From Thermoplasmataceae archaeon (GTDB lineage: Archaea; Thermoplasmatota; Thermoplasmata; Thermoplasmatales; Thermoplasmataceae), in the NCBI GenBank assembly GCA_031961165.1, contig JAVRLU010000001.1, positions 10,636-74,635 of the forward strand: 64,000 nucleotides of DNA. The letters run 5' to 3'. A model generated the notes under the pieces. It searched no databases and was not told the DNA's origin. It saw only the letters and a list, made by a program, of their open reading frames with translations. Position 1 is the first letter of the stretch, and every line of letters begins with the position of its first letter. Shown here piece after piece: positions 4,009 to 47,371 of this stretch. The position numbers and the translations under genes are program-made.

Positions 4009-5223
4009 ATGGTCAATCTCTTTTCAAAATTCTCTGGAACCCAAACTATCAAGGCCGATCTTTCGATGCTGGAGGAGAATTATATCCCCGATGAATTCCC
4101 GCACAGGGAAAAGCAGATAGAATCAATGGTAACGATTCTCAGCAGCATAATGAGAAATTCGAGGCCTTCAAACATAATCATCTATGGAAAGACAGGAACA
4201 GGAAAAACCTCCACTGCGAAGTATGTAACAAAAATGCTTACTGATGCAACGAGTTCAGTGAAGGTGCTCTATGTAAACTGTGAAATATATGATTCTCCTT
4301 ATTCAATTCTTGTTTACATTTCGAACGAGCTTCAGGGGGAAAAGGTACCGGAACTGGGGTGGCCTCTTGACAGGATATACCGGGAGATAGTTGAACGGCT
4401 GAACGCAAGTGGAAAATTCTTGATCATAGTGCTTGATGAAATGGACAGGCTTATAAAGAAAAGCGGTGGCGATTCCCTCTACGTGCTCCTGAAACTCATA
4501 AGCGACGTAAACGATGTGAAGGCATCGCTTATAGGCATAACAAACGATACAACATTGCTGGAGAACATAGATTCAAGGATCAAGAGCAGGCTCAACCAGG
4601 AGAGCATCATATTTCCCCCCTATAACGCACCTGAAATAAAGGATATAATAAAATCCAGGCTTGAGAAGGTCATCGATTTCAATATCATAGATGAAACTGC
4701 TATCAATCTCTGTGCCGCTATAGGCGCACAGGAACATGGTGATGCCAGGAAAGCCCTGGAACTTATAAGGATATCTATTGAAATAGCCATCAGGAATGGA
4801 AAGGAAAAGGTCTCGGAAAAAGAGGTGTACGAGGCAAGGGAAAAATATGAGATGAACGTTCTCCGCGAAGCAATCAATACCCTTCCGCTGCAGTCAAAGA
4901 TCGTGCTCCTGAGTGCCATAGTAACCCAGGAAATTGAACCGAATACGACGGTAACCGGGGAGATATATGAGAATTACAGGAGCATCTGCTCTGAACTTGG
5001 CTTTTCACCCCTTACCCCCAGGCGAATAAGTGATCTTCTTACGGAGCTCGCTGATTACGGCCTGATAATAATAAACGATAAAAATATGGGAAAATACGGA
5101 AGGACCCGTTCCATATCTGTTACAAGGGAACTGGGTTCAATGAAAAAATACCTTATCGAGGACGAGAACCTGTCCATGTTCAACGGTTCAAAGATAACGA
5201 AGCAGGCCAGGTTTGAAACCTGA
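4009..5223 (+). CDS. cdc6: Orc1/Cdc6 replication initiator, paralog 1
   Basis: Has AAA+ Walker A YGKTGTGKTS and Walker B IIVLDEMD, plus a C-terminal winged-helix region. Length is 404 aa. Confidence 0.9.
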   Translation: MVNLFSKFSGTQTIKADLSMLEENYIPDEFPHREKQIESMVTILSSIMRNSRPSNIIIYGKTGTGKTSTAKYVTKMLTDATSSVKVLYVNCEIYDSPYSILVYISNELQGEKVPELGWPLDRIYREIVERLNASGKFLIIVLDEMDRLIKKSGGDSLYVLLKLISDVNDVKASLIGITNDTTLLENIDSRIKSRLNQESIIFPPYNAPEIKDIIKSRLEKVIDFNIIDETAINLCAAIGAQEHGDARKALELIRISIEIAIRNGKEKVSEKEVYEAREKYEMNVLREAINTLPLQSKIVLLSAIVTQEIEPNTTVTGEIYENYRSICSELGFSPLTPRRISDLLTELADYGLIIINDKNMGKYGRTRSISVTRELGSMKKYLIEDENLSMFNGSKITKQARFET

Positions 5224-27159: not shown

Positions 27160-27244
<85 letters not shown>

Positions 27245-27403
27245 CTCCGCAAAATTTAATGGAAAATTTCACAGAAATTTATACGGAAATGCAGCGTTTC
27301 ATCCAATACTGCGATGTTAATACGATCATTTTCATTCTTTCCGTATAAAAACGGAATCAGTTCAACTGGAAAAAGATAATTAACTAAAAATGATTATATC
27401 ACC

Positions 27404-32636: not shown

Positions 32637-32714
32637 CTGAAGCCCTAATCAGGGAATACAACATTTTATCATATTTGTGAATATTATTATAATATTAATA
32701 TATCTGTTTGATCT

Positions 32715-35672: not shown

Positions 35673-36202
35673 ATATAACCAATAATTCGATTAGAATTAT
35701 AAGCTTATTGTAACGGAAAGGCATGCTTTGTGATCCTCCATTTTTAAATACGATGCCATGATAACATCGAAGTGAGATTCCGGATGCATTGAATGAATGT
35801 TAAGAGAATCGATTCCGGTACTCATCCGGATTTCATGCTAAACCGATAATCCTGAAAACGAAACGGTTACCAGGAAGCTATGTGCAATTTTCCTGAAACC
35901 TGCATTACGTATCGGTTGTCATTGATTTTTTCATGTGATTTACGGGGGAAAGAGATCAATAATATCATCCATATGGGAAAAACTACGGATCTAATGGAAA
36001 GTTATGAAGATCCCGTACGGGATTTTCTTAACCCTGCCGGTGCATAGGAAAAAAGAAGGGATTCTTATTCAAGCCCAATCCTGGATTACTTCAGATGTTT
36101 AAATTCCCGGATTGTTAAGAAAAAGCTAAATAAGGATCAATATATTAGGGTTTAGCTTAGGAGACATGATATGATTCTCCAGATAGATAAAAGGTGAAAA
36201 TA

Positions 36203-37477
36203 ATGGCATCTCAAAAACCACATCTAAACTTGGTAACGATCGGACACGTAGATCACGGGAAATCAACTCTCGTGGGCAGGCTCCTCTTTGAGCACGGTGA
36301 GATTCCGGCGCATATAATTGAAGAGTATAAGAAGGAAGCTGAGCAGAAGGGAAAGGCAACCTTTGAGTTTGCGTGGGTTATGGATAGATTTAAAGAAGAG
36401 AGGGAAAGAGGTGTAACTATAGATCTTGCCCACAGGAAATTTGAGACGGACAAGTATTATTTTACGCTTATAGACGCTCCGGGACACAGGGACTTTGTTA
36501 AGAATATGATCACCGGTACAAGCCAGGCTGATGCTGCTATACTTGTTATATCAGCCCGTGAAGGAGAAGGTGTAATGGAGCAGACCAGGGAGCACGCATT
36601 CCTTGCCAGGACTCTTGGCGTTCCACAGCTTGTAGTTGCGATTAACAAAATGGATGCAACTGAGCCACCTTACAGCGAAAAGAGATACAATGAGGTCAAA
36701 TCTGATGCAGAAAAGCTTCTGAAGTCGATAGGATACAAGGATATTTCATTTGTGCCTATAAGTGGATATAAAGGCGACAATATAACAAAACCCAGTCCCA
36801 GCATGCCATGGTACAAGGGCCCGACACTGCTTCAGGCACTGGACGCTTTCAAGGTACCTGATAAGCCTACCACAAAGCCACTCCGCATTCCTGTTGAGGA
36901 TGTATATTCAATAACCGGAATAGGAACTGTTCCAGTTGGAAGGGTCGAAACTGGAGTGCTGAAGCCCGGGGATAAGGTGATATTCCTTCCGGCTGATAAG
37001 CAGGGAGATGTAAAATCAATAGAAATGCATCATGAAGCTATACCCCAGGCCGAGCCAGGAGACAACATCGGTTTTAATGTAAGGGGAATAGCCAAGAATG
37101 ATGTAAAGAGAGGGGATGTATGCGGGCATACCGACACTCCACCTACGGTCGTAAAGGGTTTCACAGCACAGCTGGTTGTACTTAACCACCCGAGCGTTAT
37201 TGCTCCGGGATACAAGCCTGTATTCCACGTGCATACAGCCCAGGTTGCGTGCAAGATAGAAGAAATCGTGAAAACAATAAATCCGAAGGATGGAACAACC
37301 CTGAAGGAAAAACCGGATTTCATCAAGACAGGAGATATCGCTATTGTAAAAGTAGTGCCTGACAAGCCGCTGGTAATAGAAAAAATATCTGAAATACCGC
37401 AACTCGGCCGGTTTGCGGTAAGGGATATGGGCCAGACGGTTGCAGCTGGCCAGTGCATTGATGTAGAAAAGAGGTAA
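36203..37477 (+). CDS. tuf: Translation elongation factor aEF-1 alpha
   Basis: Contains [17 protein letters not shown] and NKMD. AGGTGA lies 6-8 nt before ATG at 36203. Confidence 0.97.
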
Positions 37478-37481
37478 TCCC

Positions 37482-37796
37482 ATGGCATCTTACAAAGCAA
37501 GAATTTCATTGAGTGGCACTGAACACAAAGTTGTTGACATGGTATGCGGTGAGATCAGGGAAATCGCAAGCAGGACCGGGGTTGAAATTCACGGTCCAAT
37601 GCCTCTTCCTACGAAGAAGCTTGTTGTGCCGGTCAGAAAGAGTCCTGATGGCGAGGGAACAAATACCTGGGATCACTGGGAAATGAGAATACACAAACGC
37701 CTGATCGATGTCGACGCTGATGAAAGAACATTAAGACAACTTATGAGAATACCGATTCCAGATGGAGTCCAGATAGAAATACAGATAAAGAGTTAA
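37482..37796 (+). CDS. rps10: 30S ribosomal protein uS10
   Basis: The 104-aa product has the pattern ARI.L.G......D.VC..I; GP.PLPT; ...WE.R.HKRLID. It starts 4 nt after the tuf stop. Confidence 0.93.
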
Positions 37797-37835
37797 TTTT
37801 TTTATTTTTAATATTTAAAAATATGGTGTTTATTT

Positions 37836-40034
37836 ATGGGAAGAAAAGAAGATAATATAGAGAAAGCGTTAAAGATTGTTGAGCATACCGAAATGATCAG
37901 AAATATCGGTATTGTGGCTCATATTGATCATGGTAAGACAACGCTGAGTGATAATCTTATAGCCGGCGCAGGCATGATGAGCGAAGATCTTGCGGGAAAA
38001 CAGCTGGTCCTGGATTACGATGAACAGGAACAGGCAAGGGGAATTACAATAAATGCAGCTGTTGCATCAATGGTCCATTCTTTCCAGGGAAAAGACTATC
38101 TGATTAACCTGATAGATACCCCCGGCCATGTTGACTTCGGAGGCGATGTTACAAGGGCTATGAGGGCTGTTGACGGAGTGGTTGTTGTTGTTGATGCAGT
38201 AGAAGGTGTTATGCCGCAGACAGAAACAGTCATAAGGCAGGCACTGAGGGAACACGTAAAGCCGGTTCTGTTCATAAATAAGGTTGACAGGCTCATAAAC
38301 GAGCTCCGCCTTAATAGCGATGAAATGCAGAAAAAATTCACGAAAATTATATCAGACGTCAACAGGCTTATTGTCAAATACGCCCCCAAGGAATTTACCA
38401 AGGACTGGCAGGTGTCGGTCCAGGACGGGCGCGTTGCTTTTGGATCTGCATATAATAACTGGGCCATTTCTGTGCCATCCATGGCAGAAACCAAGATAAC
38501 TTTCAAGGATATTGTTGATTATGTCAAGGCAGGGAAGCAGAAGGAACTTGCCCAGAAAAATCAGCTTCATAAAATAATACTCAACATGGTCATAAGACAC
38601 CTTCCGGATCCAAAGACTGCACAGGCTTACAGGATTCAGTCCATATGGAAAGGTGATATAAATTCTGAGGTCGGAAAAGCAATGATGACCTGCGACTATA
38701 AGGGCCCTGTAAGCATGATGATAACAAAAATAATAATTGATCCGCATGCAGGGGAAATAGCAATTGGAAGGCTTTTCAGCGGAACGGTCAGGAAAGGCAC
38801 CGACCTTTACATAGTGAATGGCGGAAAGGCAAAGGTCCAGACTCTGGCTATGATGGTTGGCGCTGACCGTATACCGGTTGAGGAGGTAACGGCAGGAAAC
38901 ATAGCCGCAATGGTTGGGCTTAAAAGTGCAATTGCGGGAGCTACAGTATCTTCTGTCGAAAACATGGAACCATTCGAACCCATGATACATTATTCGGATC
39001 CTGTGGTGACTCTTGCAATAGAGGCAAAGCACACCGCAGATCTTCCCAGGCTCATAGATGTGCTCCGTGACATATCCAAAGCGGATCCGTCGATCGAAGT
39101 CGATATAAACCAGGAAACCGGGGAGCATCTTATATCGGGTATGGGTGAGCTGCACCTTGATGTCACGCTGTACAGGATAAAGAATGATTATAAAGTGGAA
39201 GTTGAAACATCCGAACCAATTGTCGTTTACAGGGAAACTGTTGAAAAGAAAGGCGGTCCTTTTGAAGGAAAATCACCGAACAAGCATAACAGATTCTACT
39301 TTGAAGTTGAACCTTTGAAACCGGAAATAATACAGGCAATTGAGGATGGCGATATTCCACAGGGTTCAAAATTCAAGGATAAGAAGGCTCTAGTTGAGCT
39401 GCTCGTAGGAAAGGGCATGGACAGGGACGAGGCGAAGGGCCTTGTATGCGTTGACGGCACAAACATGATGTTTGACGTAACAAAGGGAATACAGTACCTT
39501 GACGAGACAATGGAACTCCTGATAGAGGCTTTTACAGAGGTAATGGCAAGGGGTCCTCTTGCCAATGAAAAGGTGTACGGCGTCAAGGCAAGGCTCGTTG
39601 ATGCAAAACTCCACGAGGACAGTATACACAGGGGCCCGGCCCAGGTAATACCCGCAGGCAGGAACTCATTATACGGCGCAATGTGCGAAGCAAAGCGTGT
39701 ACTGCTGGAACCAATACAGCGCGTATTCATATCTGTTCCCCAGGAGGAAATGGGCGCCGCTATAAACGAGGTACAGCAGAGGCGTGGAATAATAGAGGAT
39801 ATGAAGCAGGAAGGGGAAGAAGTTACAGTCATATCCAGAATACCAGTGTCCGGAATGTTTGGTTTCGCATCTGCAATAAGAAGCGCCACCGGTGGAAAAG
39901 TCCTCTGGAGCTTCGAAAACGCGGGATACCAGAGAGTTCCGCCCGATCTTCTTGATGGTGTTGTGAAATCAATAAGGGAAAGAAAGGGATTAAGGCCAGA
40001 GCCTTACGACGTGGATTATTATTCGTCTCTCTGA
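37836..40034 (+). CDS. fusA: Translation elongation factor aEF-2
   Basis: Contains AHIDHGKTT, DTPGHVDF, NKVDR and the diphthamide-site HEDSIHRGPAQ. Length is 732 aa. Confidence 0.97.
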   Translation: MGRKEDNIEKALKIVEHTEMIRNIGIVAHIDHGKTTLSDNLIAGAGMMSEDLAGKQLVLDYDEQEQARGITINAAVASMVHSFQGKDYLINLIDTPGHVDFGGDVTRAMRAVDGVVVVVDAVEGVMPQTETVIRQALREHVKPVLFINKVDRLINELRLNSDEMQKKFTKIISDVNRLIVKYAPKEFTKDWQVSVQDGRVAFGSAYNNWAISVPSMAETKITFKDIVDYVKAGKQKELAQKNQLHKIILNMVIRHLPDPKTAQAYRIQSIWKGDINSEVGKAMMTCDYKGPVSMMITKIIIDPHAGEIAIGRLFSGTVRKGTDLYIVNGGKAKVQTLAMMVGADRIPVEEVTAGNIAAMVGLKSAIAGATVSSVENMEPFEPMIHYSDPVVTLAIEAKHTADLPRLIDVLRDISKADPSIEVDINQETGEHLISGMGELHLDVTLYRIKNDYKVEVETSEPIVVYRETVEKKGGPFEGKSPNKHNRFYFEVEPLKPEIIQAIEDGDIPQGSKFKDKKALVELLVGKGMDRDEAKGLVCVDGTNMMFDVTKGIQYLDETMELLIEAFTEVMARGPLANEKVYGVKARLVDAKLHEDSIHRGPAQVIPAGRNSLYGAMCEAKRVLLEPIQRVFISVPQEEMGAAINEVQQRRGIIEDMKQEGEEVTVISRIPVSGMFGFASAIRSATGGKVLWSFENAGYQRVPPDLLDGVVKSIRERKGLRPEPYDVDYYSSL

Positions 40035-40293
40035 TCCCTTAAAATTTATTTTTAACCTTTTAATTATTTTCAGTTTTTTAATTGTAATTCATATCCGCAT
40101 TTCCGTCTATGCCATAGTCCGAGATCCGGATTTTCGTAATTTGATCTTGATTGCCTGATTCCTGGCTATCCGGGCGCATTGTTATTAATGCCGTATAACT
40201 TTTTAAACTCGTTGATCAATGCCTTTTTCCAGCATATTTTACATTTTTGTTTGTTTTAGAAACGGTCTTCTAGTATCCTGTTTATGTAAATGC

Positions 40294-40668
40294 ATGATCG
40301 GGCATCTTGAGGTATTTCAGACACCTAAAATTGACGAGGACCGTTTGAAGGATCTGCTCAAAAAATACTATTCATCGCATTTCCTGATATCAGACGGGAT
40401 AATGATTGATTTCAGGGGGTGGAATTTCAATGCGAAAATACAGAGGATACTTACCGTGTACCAGCTAAAGAGGATACTCATGGAAGCCGACGACATGCCG
40501 TTCATAATATCTGCAGCAGCTGAAATTGTCAATTCATGGCCTGTGAAGGATATAGTGTCCCTGAGCGAAATAATGCAGATCAGAAGCTATTACCGTGGCT
40601 GTGACATCTATTTTAATGTCGTTGGCAGCTACAATTTCTATAATTTCATGCTCAGGCCGGTGAGATAG
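40294..40668 (+). CDS. Hypothetical protein, first gene of the PolB2-type operon
   Basis: The ORF is open from 40219, but the first 25 codons are Cys/Phe-rich and junk-like, so I prefer ATG at 40294. Its TAG stop abuts the next ATG. I recognise no motif. Confidence 0.45.
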   Translation: MIGHLEVFQTPKIDEDRLKDLLKKYYSSHFLISDGIMIDFRGWNFNAKIQRILTVYQLKRILMEADDMPFIISAAAEIVNSWPVKDIVSLSEIMQIRSYYRGCDIYFNVVGSYNFYNFMLRPVR

Positions 40669-40908
40669 ATGGGCAGAAGCACACCAAGCGCAAGGCAAAG
40701 CATAGATTCGCTCGTTTCGGAAATCGAGGAAATGAAGAGGATAATGAGAAAAGGCGATTCCTCTATTGTTGATGATATAATAAGATATGGAAAGACCAAT
40801 TCTGCCAGCGTAACCTATTCAACCATAGACCCTGACATAGGGTTCATTATATCCGTACTGGTTGAGGTGGTCAAACGTATATCAATGCTGGAGGAACAGA
40901 TAAAATAA
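40669..40908 (+). CDS. Hypothetical 79-aa protein, second gene of the PolB2-type operon
   Basis: The start ATG immediately follows the upstream TAG (tagATG). The gene ends 11 nt before the polymerase start. Both ends look predicted-helical. Confidence 0.45.
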   Translation: MGRSTPSARQSIDSLVSEIEEMKRIMRKGDSSIVDDIIRYGKTNSASVTYSTIDPDIGFIISVLVEVVKRISMLEEQIK

Positions 40909-40919
40909 CACTTTATTCC

Positions 40920-42758
40920 ATGGAAAATGGAAGGACATACAGAAGAATTTATGAGAACAGATCATGGTTTTTTGTAACCGGCGATGCGTATGATCTTGAT
41001 TTCCTTGCAAGGCAGCTGGATGAAACCGGATTCAGATACGATTTTTCCAGAAGGAGGGATGTTTACGGGGAAATGCCAGGAATAACAGTATACGCTAAGC
41101 CCTCAAAAATACCCGGCATTGCAGGGATAATATACGATGGGATAGGTATGGGGAGAAAGTACAGGATATTCAATGCCGATATCAATCCGGTTCTCCGGTT
41201 CATGGCTGTTCACGGGCTGAGTTTTTTTGAAACAGCCAGCCCGTACGAAGGAGATCCCGATTTAAAAACGGTATTTTTTGACTGCGAAGACGGCATTTGT
41301 ACCATAGGAGGCAAAAAAGCCACGGACAGCGATATTGAAAACGAACTGAAGACCTCGGATATAATTGTTTATTCAAACGCTTACAATTTTTTCATGAAGA
41401 TAAGGGAATTAGGAATCCCGTCACGTTACTACGGAGGGAAAAGCTTCACATCATACGGCCAGATTCATTACAGGGATCCTTACGTCGATATTTATGGGAA
41501 GATAGCCATAAACTCGTCTTCATTTATCTACAGGGAAAGCGGTATAAGCGGTTTAATCGAGCTGTCCAGGATGTCAAGGATCCCGCCACTGCAGGCATCA
41601 ATAATAACACCTGGCACGGCGGTGTCATCCATGGAGATTGCGGATGCACTGGCAGAAGGCATACTGGTTCCGTCAAAAAAGGATGATAACGAGGATGAAA
41701 AGGGAATTCAGGAACTCATTGAAAACGATCGTGGAGGTCTCGTTCTTCAGCCACGTCCCGGCATATACGAGGACGTATACGAAATAGACTTCTCTTCAAT
41801 GTACCCGAGCATAATCGTGAGATACGGCCTGTCGATCGGAAACGATCACTTTTTATCAAGATCGCTTTCAAAGCTCCTTGAAAAAAGGCTTCTGTATAAG
41901 GCAATGGATGATATCAACGAGATATACCATAACAGAAATAAGGCGCTCAAATGGATGCTCCTGACCTCATTTGGATACACAGGATACAGGAACGCAAAGT
42001 TCGGAAAGATAGAGATACATGAGAAGATAACCGGGACAGGAAGGAAAATACTGGCTGAGGCAATCCGCATAGCCCATGAAAATGGTTTTGAGGTACTCCA
42101 TGGCATAGTTGATTCCCTCTGGATAAAGGGTGACGGTGACATAAACATGGTATTATCAGAAATTAAAGCAGAAACAGGTATCGACATTGTTGTGAGCGGG
42201 CACTACAGATGGATAGTTTTCCTTCCGGAACATGACGGAACAGGATCGCCGTCCCGATATTTTGGCCTTGGCTACGATGGAAAATACAAGGTAAGGGGCA
42301 TAGACCTGAGGAGGAATGATGTACCGGCAATATCAAGGAAATTCCAGATGGATGCATTGAAAATACTTGAAAGCTGCAAAAATGAATACGATATATACCA
42401 AAAATACAGAGATATAAAGGACCTGGAATCATGGTACATCCGTAACATCAGAAATTTTCCGGCGGAGTACTTCTCCATAAATCTTAAGATATCACGGTAT
42501 CCGGAATACTACTCGGTGGATACAATCGGAAAACATGTAACAGGTAAATGCATGGAGAATGGCAATGTATATCCCGGAAAAGAGGTAAGCTATGTTGTTT
42601 CGGATTATAAAAGAAAAATTATCGGTTTAGGAAGGGATTCAAATGTTGACTATAATTTTTACAGGCGTTACCTTGCAAGGGCATTTGAGCCCTTTGATTT
42701 TATATACAGGAATATGATCAAAAAAGTTCGTTTAGAAGATTTTCAACTTTCCGTATGA
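40920..42758 (+). CDS. Short family-B DNA polymerase paralog (PolB2 / Dpo2-like) with degenerate exonuclease motifs and altered motif C
   Basis: Motif A is YEIDFSSMYPSIIV. The motif B-like segment is KWMLLTSFGYTGY, and the motif C position reads HGIVDS instead of YGDTDS. VRGIDLRRNDV resembles TRGLEIVRRDW. At 612 aa it is shorter than replicative PolB, which is nearer 800 aa. Confidence 0.8.
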   Translation: MENGRTYRRIYENRSWFFVTGDAYDLDFLARQLDETGFRYDFSRRRDVYGEMPGITVYAKPSKIPGIAGIIYDGIGMGRKYRIFNADINPVLRFMAVHGLSFFETASPYEGDPDLKTVFFDCEDGICTIGGKKATDSDIENELKTSDIIVYSNAYNFFMKIRELGIPSRYYGGKSFTSYGQIHYRDPYVDIYGKIAINSSSFIYRESGISGLIELSRMSRIPPLQASIITPGTAVSSMEIADALAEGILVPSKKDDNEDEKGIQELIENDRGGLVLQPRPGIYEDVYEIDFSSMYPSIIVRYGLSIGNDHFLSRSLSKLLEKRLLYKAMDDINEIYHNRNKALKWMLLTSFGYTGYRNAKFGKIEIHEKITGTGRKILAEAIRIAHENGFEVLHGIVDSLWIKGDGDINMVLSEIKAETGIDIVVSGHYRWIVFLPEHDGTGSPSRYFGLGYDGKYKVRGIDLRRNDVPAISRKFQMDALKILESCKNEYDIYQKYRDIKDLESWYIRNIRNFPAEYFSINLKISRYPEYYSVDTIGKHVTGKCMENGNVYPGKEVSYVVSDYKRKIIGLGRDSNVDYNFYRRYLARAFEPFDFIYRNMIKKVRLEDFQLSV

Positions 42759-43824
42759 GGACGCTTACAGGAACATCATATATGGTTATGAGTTTCGAGA
42801 CCCCCCTCGCCCTGCCACGCCCCTCAAGCGTTGAATTTATTATCCCGATCCTCTCAAGATTTTTCAGATCCTCGTATATATCCGATTTTCCATTATAACT
42901 GTACTGCTCGGAAATTATGCCCTTAAAATGGGAAACGCATGCAACATCTGTCCTGCTGCTGTCAGAAAGGCAGCGGCACACGGCTAGCAGCGTTATCAGG
43001 CCATCTGCATCCAGTTCTGCAAGCCTGCTTTCTGTTACAAACGGTGTAACCATGGATTTTGCAGCACGGACATCATCGTATTCCACGCGATCCGCCTTCC
43101 TGTATTCGGCTATATACGAAGCCTTCTGAAGAATATCTATAGCATACCTTGCACTTCCGAATTCTGATGATATCTCTGAAATGTAATCAATAATTGAAGA
43201 ATCATATGCATTTTCAAAAAGTGATCTTTTCGCACGATCCTCAGCAATGTAATAAAGCTCGTCCTTTGAATACCTCCTGAACTTTATTTCATTGAATATC
43301 CCGTAGGATTTCCTGGTCTTGGAATCGAGAAACAGGATAGGATCCTCCATCATGACAAAAACCGTGGAAATATTGACGCCAAAGGAATCTTCAGCCCTTA
43401 AGAGGTAATAGATTCCCTCCGGATCATTCCTCAGTATGCTGGATGCCTCATCAATGACAATGATCATATTTTTTCCATATTTTTCAGTTAATTTTGCGAA
43501 TCTTGAAAATATGTTCGCATATGAGGCCCTTTCAGAAACGATAACACCCTCCCTTGAAAGTATGTCTGCAAGGACGCTCTTTATCGATCTGTATGAAATT
43601 GCATTTTCATAGATCGCATGCGGGGTCTTTGTTTCCCTTATTATATACCTCATCGTAACGGTCTTGCCTGTGCCGGAATCCCCGTATACTATAAAATTGG
43701 ACATTATGCCGTTCATCATAGGGTAAACGAGGTTTTTTCTGAAAGTTTCTATCTCATTGTCCCTGTAGAGCAACTTTTCAGGGATGAACGAATTTTCAAG
43801 AGCATCAGGCTTTCTTATGATCAA
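42718..43824 (-). CDS. cdc6: Orc1/Cdc6 replication initiator, paralog 2
   Basis: Has Walker A YGDSGTGKTV and Walker B IIVIDEAS, with a C-terminal winged-helix-like region. Its 3' end overlaps the polymerase gene by 41 nt. Confidence 0.85.
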   Translation of the reverse strand: MIIRKPDALENSFIPEKLLYRDNEIETFRKNLVYPMMNGIMSNFIVYGDSGTGKTVTMRYIIRETKTPHAIYENAISYRSIKSVLADILSREGVIVSERASYANIFSRFAKLTEKYGKNMIIVIDEASSILRNDPEGIYYLLRAEDSFGVNISTVFVMMEDPILFLDSKTRKSYGIFNEIKFRRYSKDELYYIAEDRAKRSLFENAYDSSIIDYISEISSEFGSARYAIDILQKASYIAEYRKADRVEYDDVRAAKSMVTPFVTESRLAELDADGLITLLAVCRCLSDSSRTDVACVSHFKGIISEQYSYNGKSDIYEDLKNLERIGIINSTLEGRGRARGVSKLITIYDVPVSVLIRKVENLLNELF

Positions 43825-44202
43825 CCCGTATGAAATATGAACATGAATATAATATTTTTTTCTTATACGGTTATGGGAATCGTTAAAACATGGATCTGGC
43901 TATTTCAAATATAGCGAAGTGAAGTGCAAACACCAGGTGAAAATTGATCATTTTCTGCGAAATAAAATTTATTCGTAATATTCATAAATTTTATCTTTAA
44001 CTTGCCTTCTTCAATTAAAAGTTCCATCCCCCTTCCGGCATCCAGTCTTTATATTCCTCCATTTATGGCGAGAAGAGCATCGATATGGTACACATATCAA
44101 GGATCCGCGTAAAAAACTAGCATGGCTAAGTGAAATTTTTACCGAATCCATTTTGAAGCGATTCAGCAATCATTTACGAACAATGGTTTAATTCATAAGG
44201 CC

Positions 44203-46941: not shown

Positions 46942-47026
46942 GCGGAGGTTGTCGAGACTGGTCAAAGGCGATGGATTCAGGGTCCATTTTCGTAGGAATT
47001 CGGGGGTTCAAATCCCCCCCTCCGCA
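46942..47026 (+). tRNA. tRNA-Leu (anticodon CAG)
   Basis: The acceptor stem is GCGGAGG/CCTCCGC with discriminator A. The anticodon stem is ATGGA/TCCAT with loop TTCAGGG. It has a long variable arm and T-arm GGGGG-TTCAAAT-CCCCC. Confidence 0.9.
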
Positions 47027-47371
47027 TTGTTTCTTGTGTGTTATTATAGCCACATAAAATTCCGTATCAAAAATTAAAATGCCTTAAATAAAATTCCCTG
47101 CATAACTATCCCTTCCCTATCTGCATGATTGACCGTTAACATTCATTTTTTCAATATGCATAAATGATCATAACGGGCATTGTAAGTAATTGAATAAAAT
47201 TTACGATGTTTTAATTTATAATTGTCTTTTAGTAAATTTTTACACGTTTATCCTCTCTTAATTTTTTTGATAGAAGTGTATACAAATTGCTGTAATTTCG
47301 AAAAGATCCTGCTGATCAACACCTGGACCATCTGGAACTGAGATCATGATGTATATGTCATCGAGTTAATC

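Follow-up and report, generated by a model that had tools for sequence, protein, structure and literature searches.

What does a short family B DNA polymerase do when its gene follows two small genes of unclear identity and meets, tail to tail, a gene for a second Orc1/Cdc6 protein? The question is raised by a locus in a 64,000-nucleotide (nt) stretch of DNA from a Thermoplasmataceae archaeon, which we call the window and whose positions serve as coordinates throughout. According to our analysis, Thermoplasmatales have here their own version of the PolB2 mutasome operon of archaea, iRadA-PPB2-PolB2, which works as described for that system, a reading to which we assign a probability of about 0.82. 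In this operon PolB2 is the polymerase, PPB2 its small "Partner of PolB2" and iRadA its inactivated RadA partner.

The open reading frame (ORF) map confirmed four genes, of which orfA, orfB and the polymerase gene lie on the plus strand and orc1/cdc6 on the minus strand. orfA (40294 to 40668) encodes 124 amino acids and ends with a TAG stop codon (40666 to 40668) abutting the ATG of orfB at 40669. orfB (40669 to 40908) encodes 79 amino acids, and its TAA stop (40906 to 40908) stands 11 nt ahead of the ATG of the polymerase gene at 40920. The 612-residue polymerase (40920 to 42758) terminates with TGA at 42756 to 42758, while the convergent orc gene (42718 to 43824; 368 amino acids, TTG start as listed) has its stop at 42718 to 42720, giving a tail-to-tail overlap of 41 nt (42718 to 42758) whose plus strand encodes the C-terminal tail of the polymerase, KKVRLEDFQLSV. 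All three junctions are as the first-pass annotation of the window had given them. The longest ORF available for orfA begins at 40219 and would encode 149 amino acids, but we rejected that reading in favor of the start at ATG 40294, where the orthologues and the public gene calls also begin and which yields the size of about 124 amino acids proposed earlier. The additional 25 codons (40219 to 40293) are hydrophobic, rich in Cys and unconserved, they enclose a promoter element, and their ratio of nonsynonymous to synonymous differences (pN/pS) is 0.71, compared with 0.06 for the rest of orfA, in a comparison with the closely related locus L001 that involves only four differences in the extension. 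Judging from these features, the extension is almost certainly non-coding.

Conservation of the gene order

We surveyed the locus in one genome per species, which gave 80 loci; 59 of these are of Thermoplasmatales or Thermoplasmata type, with Oxyplasma, Cuniculiplasma and I-plasma among them, and 21 come from Methanoregula and its relatives. Word-indexed protein searches returned two near-identical relatives each for orfA and orfB, and further homologues were obtained by tblastn of the window proteins on the loci, with identities of up to 42% for orfA (E values down to 1e-26) and up to 46% for orfB (1e-19). In most of the 59 Thermoplasmatales-type loci, orfA and orfB were found directly 5' of the polymerase gene on the same strand; tblastn found neither of them in three loci (L032, L040 and L053) and only one of the two in ten others. 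A convergent orc gene was detected in 49 loci. Its 3' end could be located relative to that of the polymerase gene in 48 loci; the two overlap by 4 to 84 nt in 34 of them and lie within 49 nt of each other in the remainder. The neighborhood survey called for by the first-pass annotation thus shows both small genes and orc co-occurring with the polymerase in most Thermoplasmatales-type genomes.

The genes are tightly packed elsewhere too, with orfA overlapping orfB by about 25 nt and orfB overlapping the polymerase start by 4 nt in many loci. Natural in-frame fusions of orfA and orfB that keep the internal MGRT sequence also occur (L025:5309-5923, 204 amino acids; L029:5252-5902, 216 amino acids; P0129, 224 amino acids). 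Relative to L001, whose proteins are 94 to 97% identical to those of the window, pN/pS is 0.06 for orfA, 0.20 for orfB, 0.15 for the polymerase and 0.08 for orc, and all four genes are under purifying selection. The overlapping or abutting frames, the fusions and the purifying selection together point to a single unit of transcription and translation, and the arrangement is far beyond chance.

The orthologous locus of Thermoplasma volcanium GSS1 (BA000011.4), which has a counterpart in T. acidophilum, presents in order an EF-2 gene, a gene for a 137-residue protein, one for a 79-residue DUF8156 protein, one for a 619-residue family B polymerase that is 54% identical to that of the window, a convergent gene for a 369-residue Orc protein, and a gene for a transporter of the major facilitator superfamily (MFS). 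The polymerase and orc genes overlap there by 50 nt, and a gene for a periplasmic binding protein is inserted between EF-2 and the operon. Compared with this relative, orfA of the window, which belongs to an uncultured Thermoplasmataceae lineage, is shorter by 13 amino acids and directly adjoins orfB; in T. volcanium the two genes overlap by 41 nt. Since the locus is conserved both in the survey and in T. volcanium, the small ORFs are real genes permanently linked to the polymerase. The three co-oriented, tightly packed genes form a unit that has been kept across Thermoplasmatales, and its PPB2-PolB2 part extends into Methanomicrobiales.

The neighbors of the locus bear on a different origin for it. 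Directly upstream of the operon the window carries genes for EF-1alpha and EF-2 (36194 to 40034), and downstream of the locus lie MFS transporter genes; EF-2 also lies upstream in T. volcanium, so that placement beside translation genes is common to the two lineages, and it is absent in more distant loci. In archaeal mobile elements it is common to find a family B polymerase with small ORFs beside it, and the cluster could in principle be what is left of a mobile element or a virus that brought its own polymerase. Horizontal transfers are indeed seen in the phylogeny of PolB2 (Timinskas et al. 2025). However, the window shows no anomaly of G+C content at the locus, synteny with T. volcanium is kept on both sides (EF-2 upstream, MFS genes downstream), the cluster is present in most Thermoplasmatales loci with a divergence that tracks the lineage, and no integrase, terminal repeat or Cas1 was seen among the neighboring ORFs. 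On synteny and composition we therefore rejected this origin, whose probability we put close to negligible, and we treat the locus in what follows as a resident PolB2 operon.

The polymerase and its two small partners

The polymerase scores 660 bits against the NCBIfam model NF004416, "type B DNA-directed DNA polymerase" (cutoff, 516 bits), and also matches Pfam PF00136. About 2,500 homologues were retrieved at E values of up to 1e-5; the best 120 listed are all of Thermoplasmatales type, with identities of 54 to 56% to the Thermoplasma proteins. The nearest relatives outside this group are the polymerases of Methanoregula (33 to 35% identity, E values of about 1e-86 to 1e-91), whose operons appear in the published catalogue as iRadA-PPB2-PolB2. 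In public records the protein is named simply "type B DNA polymerase," and the small genes are entered as hypothetical or as DUF8156.

An alignment of 23 diverged members shows which of the catalytic residues are kept. Invariant are D290, Y295 and P296 of motif A (DFSSMYPS, starting at nt 41787), K344 together with SFGYTGY in motif B, residues of the KxY region, and H394, G395, D398 and S399 of motif C, which reads HGIVDS (42099 to 42116); the positions of motifs A and C given earlier proved correct. The best match among solved structures is the Pyrobaculum PolB 5mdn, in which YGDTDS lies opposite HGIVDS; the best PolB3 and PolB1 structures score only 63 to 96 bits against the window polymerase. 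In PolB2 enzymes the otherwise invariant YxDTD is replaced by HxxxD, of which the second Asp is a metal ligand (Feng et al. 2022), and IVD and IID are among the motif C variants listed for catalogued PolB2s.

The exonuclease domain, in contrast to these polymerization residues, has decayed. The part of the protein ahead of the palm is shorter than in 5mdn by about 140 residues, there is no conserved DxE, and Exo III has changed from YxxxD to YRESG, with an invariant Gly in the 23 members, in line with the degeneracy of this motif recorded earlier. The string FFDCEDG, previously described as a D-x-E-like Exo I, is present in the window protein; however, its D-C-E is shared by no orthologue (Thermoplasma proteins read VECKNG and VSCTSS at this place), and the supposedly retained Exo I is thus a chance match. 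We assign the enzyme to PolB2; as the alignment shows, it keeps every residue needed for polymerization (Asp of motif A, Lys of motif B and the second Asp of motif C) and has lost the proofreading site. The resemblance to the PolB2/Dpo2 clade noted in the first-pass annotation is borne out by the HxxxD form of motif C, by the decayed exonuclease and by the genes for PPB2 and an inactivated RadA-fold protein that stand beside it.

The same annotation had called the catalytic status of the polymerase ambiguous. We deem it less open than that, since HxxxD is the normal motif C of the clade and the Dpo2 enzyme of Sulfolobus is active. A catalytically dead polymerase that, together with iRadA, PPB2 and Orc, plays a structural or regulatory part in replication initiation or origin choice was explicitly discussed by Makarova et al. 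(2014), and the loss of the first motif C Asp and of all exonuclease carboxylates, as well as the conserved linkage to an Orc1/Cdc6 gene, would suit it. Against it, none of the 23 diverged members departs from the metal-binding D290 and D398, from the motif B Lys or from the residues of the KxY region, a constancy that would be unexpected in a dead enzyme; Sulfolobus Dpo2, carrying the same HxxxD, is a robust polymerase; and the window already encodes a canonical Orc1-1-type initiator (4009 to 5223). We hold a dead polymerase to be improbable and favor an active PolB2 that lacks proofreading.

orfB, which together with orfA had been described as an orphan, is 48% identical (E value, 2e-30) to the T. 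acidophilum member that Makarova et al. (2014) printed in their arCOG07300 alignment, and this places it by similarity in the family now called PPB2 (formerly arCOG07300; DUF8156 in Pfam). Neither small protein, nor any of the 27 orthologues of each, gave a significant Pfam or NCBIfam match in a scan whose Pfam copy did not contain PF26485; precomputed matches to this model, DUF8156, exist on P0123 and P0124, which are 97% and 81% identical to orfB, and on the T. volcanium orthologue. PPB2 is a small three-helix protein, and its arm, made of the four N-terminal residues MGRT together with Arg3 and Arg9, is inserted between PolB2 and iRadA beside the DNA in the published models (Timinskas et al. 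2025). The arm of the window protein reads MGRSTPSAR, and M1, G2, R3 and R9 are its only invariant positions in the 27 orthologues. The AlphaFold2 model of orfB, built on a four-sequence alignment, places helices at residues 6 to 26, 31 to 44 and 55 to 78. These features identify orfB as a member of the PPB2 family with the diagnostic MGR(S/T) arm.

orfA is far less readily placed. Its orthologues in Thermoplasmatales loci are 30 to 42% identical to it, the only residues invariant among 27 of them are D34, G35, R51, L53, Q57 and W82, and the P-loop GxxxxGK[ST] is absent from orfA and from all 27. An exhaustive HMMER search of 1.84 billion representative sequences returned 20 relatives, 19 of 116 to 224 amino acids and a marginal one of 812 amino acids (E value, 4.5e-4); these were short proteins of Thermoplasmatales type, and no longer iRadA was among the 20. 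AlphaFold2, run on an alignment of those relatives, gave a confident alpha/beta model with a predicted local distance difference test score (pLDDT) of 89.3 and a predicted template modeling (TM) score of 0.83. The model opens directly with beta-1 of the core, and the N-terminal helical domain is absent. When it was compared with the PDB by Foldseek, the top 50 matches came mostly from the RecA superfamily, with query-normalized TM scores of 0.5 to 0.66 and E values of 4e-4 to 3e-2, and included the degenerate RecA-like domain of BcsE, the Sulfolobus solfataricus RadA structure 2zud, Csm2/Psy3, Shu1 and RAD51 paralogues, as well as RecA, UvsX, Sak4 and FlaH. The check by predicted structure that had been suggested for the two small ORFs thus gives a confident fold for orfA and three helices at low confidence for orfB. 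According to its model, orfA is a RecA-fold protein without a P-loop and not an orphan, and it fits a strongly reduced iRadA.

That the two small genes are dedicated partners of the polymerase, as had been conjectured, is supported by the conserved order, the abutting or overlapping frames, the fusions and the purifying selection. They might instead be co-transcribed without being subunits, one as a small regulator and the other as a stand-alone mediator of single-stranded DNA or recombination that acts elsewhere. Purified Dpo2 is active in vitro by itself, an experimental complex has so far gone unreported in the literature, and orfA resembles the Rad51-paralogue mediators Shu1, Csm2 and Psy3, all of which this explanation would accommodate. 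It sits poorly, however, with a strict three-gene linkage that reaches across phyla and into bacteria, with the existence of gene fusions and an invariant N-terminal arm of PPB2, and with published multimer models of high confidence for 40 species, and we consider it decidedly improbable. We therefore keep to the reading in which orfA and orfB are polymerase subunits.

The linked Orc1/Cdc6 paralogue and the upstream repeat

The orc gene that meets the polymerase gene encodes a divergent member of its family. The protein matches the Pfam Cdc6_lid domain with 65 bits, an AAA domain, and a winged-helix domain weakly (15 bits), and its score against TIGR02928 (153 bits) lies below the cutoff. It is 25% identical to the product of the other orc gene of the window (4009 to 5223, plus strand), and its best PDB match reaches 86 bits, with 72 bits to S. 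solfataricus Orc1-1; the other Orc scores 299 bits against S. solfataricus Orc1-1 and carries a strong Cdc6_C winged helix. Across 48 orthologues of the linked protein, conservation is at least 90% for the Walker A sequence GxxGxGKT, the Walker B DE, the sensor GSAR and the C-terminal winged-helix motif G..GV.K. Archaeal Orc1/Cdc6 proteins fall into a slowly evolving Orc1-1 cluster and a fast-evolving Orc1-2 cluster. By these scores we classify the gene at 4009 to 5223 as the canonical Orc1-1-type initiator and the PolB2-linked gene as a fast-evolving second paralogue of non-Orc1-1 type, which is presumably not an initiator. An enrichment of orc1/cdc6 (arORC2) beside polB2 in euryarchaea has been reported (Makarova et al. 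2014; Timinskas et al. 2025); the earlier proposal that the operon and the Orc paralogue form a replication or repair module is supported by our survey, and the same conclusion had already been drawn by those authors.

Many loci (L005, L007, L010 and L013 among them) carry, on the same strand as orc and ending about 40 nt before its start, a gene for a 559-residue radical-SAM-like protein with a CxxxCxxC motif, for example at L007:9100-10779; it is absent from this position in the window. In the loci that have it, orc may be co-transcribed with this gene.

When the sequences upstream of orfA from the different loci were aligned, a sharply conserved element of 16 nt emerged, with the consensus cCATTTtCTCATTTTT, also written CTCATTTTCTCATTTT, between unconserved flanks. 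It consists of two direct CTCATTT repeats, or three in the I-plasma clade, and lies about 480 to 500 nt 5' of the PPB2 start in loci L002 to L058. In many of the anchored loci a TATA-like box follows 17 to 22 nt 3' of the element, and the start codon comes about 25 to 30 nt further on. The window has its copy, CATATTTTACATTTT, at 40233 to 40247, followed at about 40255 to 40263 by an A/T-rich, TATA-like stretch, TTTTAGAAA, with the start codon about 30 nt beyond it. The conservation of the element points to 40233 to 40293 (plus strand) as the probable promoter region of the operon. When a loose pattern of the element was scanned on both strands of 672,583 bases from 56 loci, 68 matches were obtained, and 44 of them fell on the coding strand in the 341-nt zone 5' of orfA, in 39 of the 56 loci, where the background rate would predict about 0.35. 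Two other matches in the window, at 32662 on the plus strand (before an aldehyde dehydrogenase gene) and at 47166 on the minus strand (before a transporter region), were treated as chance.

In three loci the same 14-mer, CATTTACTCATTTT, recurs 61 nt 5' of orc (L006:9113, from Oxyplasma meridianum, L008:6819 and L009:9113, all on the minus strand), and its presence before both the operon and orc hints at shared regulation or autoregulation. The region 5' of the linked orc in the window (43825 to 44202) has a short direct repeat, GCACTTCACTTCGC, which reads CACTTCATTTC in L001 and loosely resembles the operon element. In Methanoregula operons, a conserved CACTTTC(G/A)C(A/C)CC occurs at the corresponding position, about 60 to 70 nt 5' of the iRadA start (L063, L064, L073 to L075, L077, L078 and L080), duplicated in L064; no orc gene was detected beside these operons.

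A regulator of comparable type is known from Sulfolobus, where Orc1-2 is the master regulator of the damage response, binds ANTTTC in promoters and is needed for the induction of dpo2. ACTTTC of Methanoregula and ATTTTC, found in many Thermoplasmatales copies, both fit ANTTTC, although a five-base match is weak. We regard the CTCATTT repeat as a candidate damage-response element, and these observations lend support to possible regulation by the adjoining Orc protein. It is conceivable, if doubtful, that the linked Orc binds the CTCATTT(T) repeat some 20 nt 5' of the TATA box and activates the operon once DNA has been damaged, and the pairing of Orc and element could be ancient and widespread in archaea. 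Were this the case, Thermoplasmatales would possess a euryarchaeal counterpart of the Orc1-2 damage-response circuit of Sulfolobus. The repeat offers a testable handle on a question raised by the Sulfolobus authors, namely, whether damage-inducible translesion synthesis is under the control of Orc1-2-type proteins in archaea other than Crenarchaeota.

Predicted function and relation to known systems

Following the literature on the family, we propose that one PolB2 would assemble with one iRadA and a trimer of PPB2, and that one PPB2's N-terminal arm would insert between PolB2 and iRadA beside the DNA. Such PolB2:iRadA:PPB2(3) heteropentamers were obtained with AlphaFold-Multimer and AF3 for 40 species, iRadA being bound in the models through a Rad51-type oligomerization motif of PolB2 (Timinskas et al. 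2025). The complex would serve DNA damage tolerance by extending primer termini that are mismatched or paired with a lesion, once a different polymerase has inserted a nucleotide. This role is modeled on Sulfolobus Dpo2, which has no exonuclease, inserts poorly opposite lesions and efficiently extends mismatched or lesion-paired termini; it is the only damage-induced polymerase of Sulfolobus and is required for induced mutagenesis. More speculatively, the adjacent Orc may, like Sulfolobus Orc1-2, regulate transcription in response to damage, here that of the operon, with the repeat as its possible target.

Contact with the sliding clamp may be arranged somewhat differently in the window lineage. 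In published models a clamp-binding motif is located on either iRadA or PolB2 (Timinskas et al. 2025), and in Thermoplasmatales the majority of iRadA orthologues have an aromatic-acidic tail at the C-terminus, GLYxWEE(Q/A) or QGRLW, whose coding sequence overlaps the PPB2 start. A C-terminal clamp-binding motif is frequent in iRadA, although neither universal nor defining, and orfA of the window does not have one, ending in FMLRPVR (end of the gene, 40600 to 40668); L001 and a few others likewise lack the tail. The window PolB2, on the other hand, ends in VRLEDFQLSV (42720 to 42758), which is encoded inside the orc overlap, resembles a PCNA-interacting peptide and has a likeness to the endings of related PolB2s (SLEDWF, NLLDFFH and DLSWWF). 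Because the iRadA of this lineage is without the aromatic-acidic tail, we predict that PCNA is probably contacted through the C-terminal tail of PolB2 (VRLEDFQL).

Several points weigh against the overall reading. No significant sequence similarity connects orfA with RadA or with the longer iRadA proteins, and HMMER searches of the PDB and Pfam with it returned nothing. Aligned by hhalign with the iRadA of Methanoregula, the orfA family shares one 23-residue motif, (Q/R)R(I/A)(L/F)TxxQLxxIL, at an E value of 0.0026 and a probability of 11%. The assignment of orfA to iRadA therefore rests on gene position and on fold, with Foldseek E values of only 4e-4 to 1e-2. The Methanoregula iRadA profile found no match in the PDB by HMMER, and one inactivated form of RadA has been described as so deteriorated that HHpred alone detects the relationship (Makarova et al. 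2014). The model of orfB is of low confidence (pLDDT, 60). The window copy of the promoter element is degenerate, and that of L001 is so much more degenerate that the pattern fails to match there. The mechanism is carried over to this lineage wholly from experiments in Sulfolobus and in silico models of other species, and it is purely by analogy that the linked Orc may be regarded as a regulator.

The module, its predicted complex and its association with Orc have already been published, and a Thermoplasma PPB2 was part of the 2014 alignment. The closest described system is the iRadA-PPB2-PolB2 operon (group 1a of Timinskas et al. 2025; listed with arORC2 by Makarova et al. 2014), with which the locus shares the gene order and the neighboring orc1/cdc6, HxxxD, the dead exonuclease, an MGRT-type arm with Arg3 and Arg9, the RadA-fold partner without a P-loop and, in relatives, iRadA-PPB2 fusions. 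It differs in that the RadA-fold partner has 124 amino acids (116 to 163 in unfused relatives), compared with at least 161 superimposable residues in the iRadA of Sulfolobus islandicus, in that this partner is unrecognizable by sequence, and in the absence of its C-terminal tail in this lineage. The unfused Thermoplasmatales iRadA (116 to 163 amino acids) may be the most reduced RecA-fold protein that still serves as a polymerase subunit, and a minimal RadA-fold subunit kept throughout the order would show how little of RecA this role needs. The reduction of iRadA across the order, the loss of its tail in the window lineage and the order-wide promoter repeat may go beyond the available literature. 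Otherwise, the locus is a well-conserved example of the PolB2 damage-tolerance system in an uncultured Thermoplasmataceae genome, and its value lies mainly in the correction of the annotation.

The Dpo2 system of S. islandicus and S. solfataricus, from which all functional data come, comprises the same three families, with HxxxD, no proofreading and a tie to an Orc1/Cdc6 paralogue. Its gene order is different, however (PPB2-PolB2-iRadA, group 3a), and the orc1-2 of Sulfolobus exerts global regulation by way of ANTTTC, whereas the Orc gene of the window is physically convergent with the operon and its candidate element is a tandem CTCATTT. Analogies have been drawn in the literature with the Pol V mutasome of Escherichia coli (UmuD'2C-RecA) and with eukaryotic Pol zeta, in which a damage-tolerance polymerase likewise goes together with a subunit of the RecA/Rad51 family and a small oligomeric subunit that extends an N-terminal arm to the active site, with the role of an extender and without proofreading. 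Pol V, however, is a family Y polymerase with unrelated small subunits, and homology is confined to the RecA fold. The PolB1-PBP1-PBP2 holoenzyme of Sulfolobus also joins two small accessory proteins to a polymerase of family B, but it belongs to the replicative PolB1 clade, which is absent from Euryarchaeota; no resemblance of orfA or orfB to PBP1 or PBP2 was noticed, and none was tested for.

Elsewhere in the window, two tRNA-Leu genes, with the anticodons TAA and CAG, are located at 27160 to 27245 and at 46942 to 47026, respectively.

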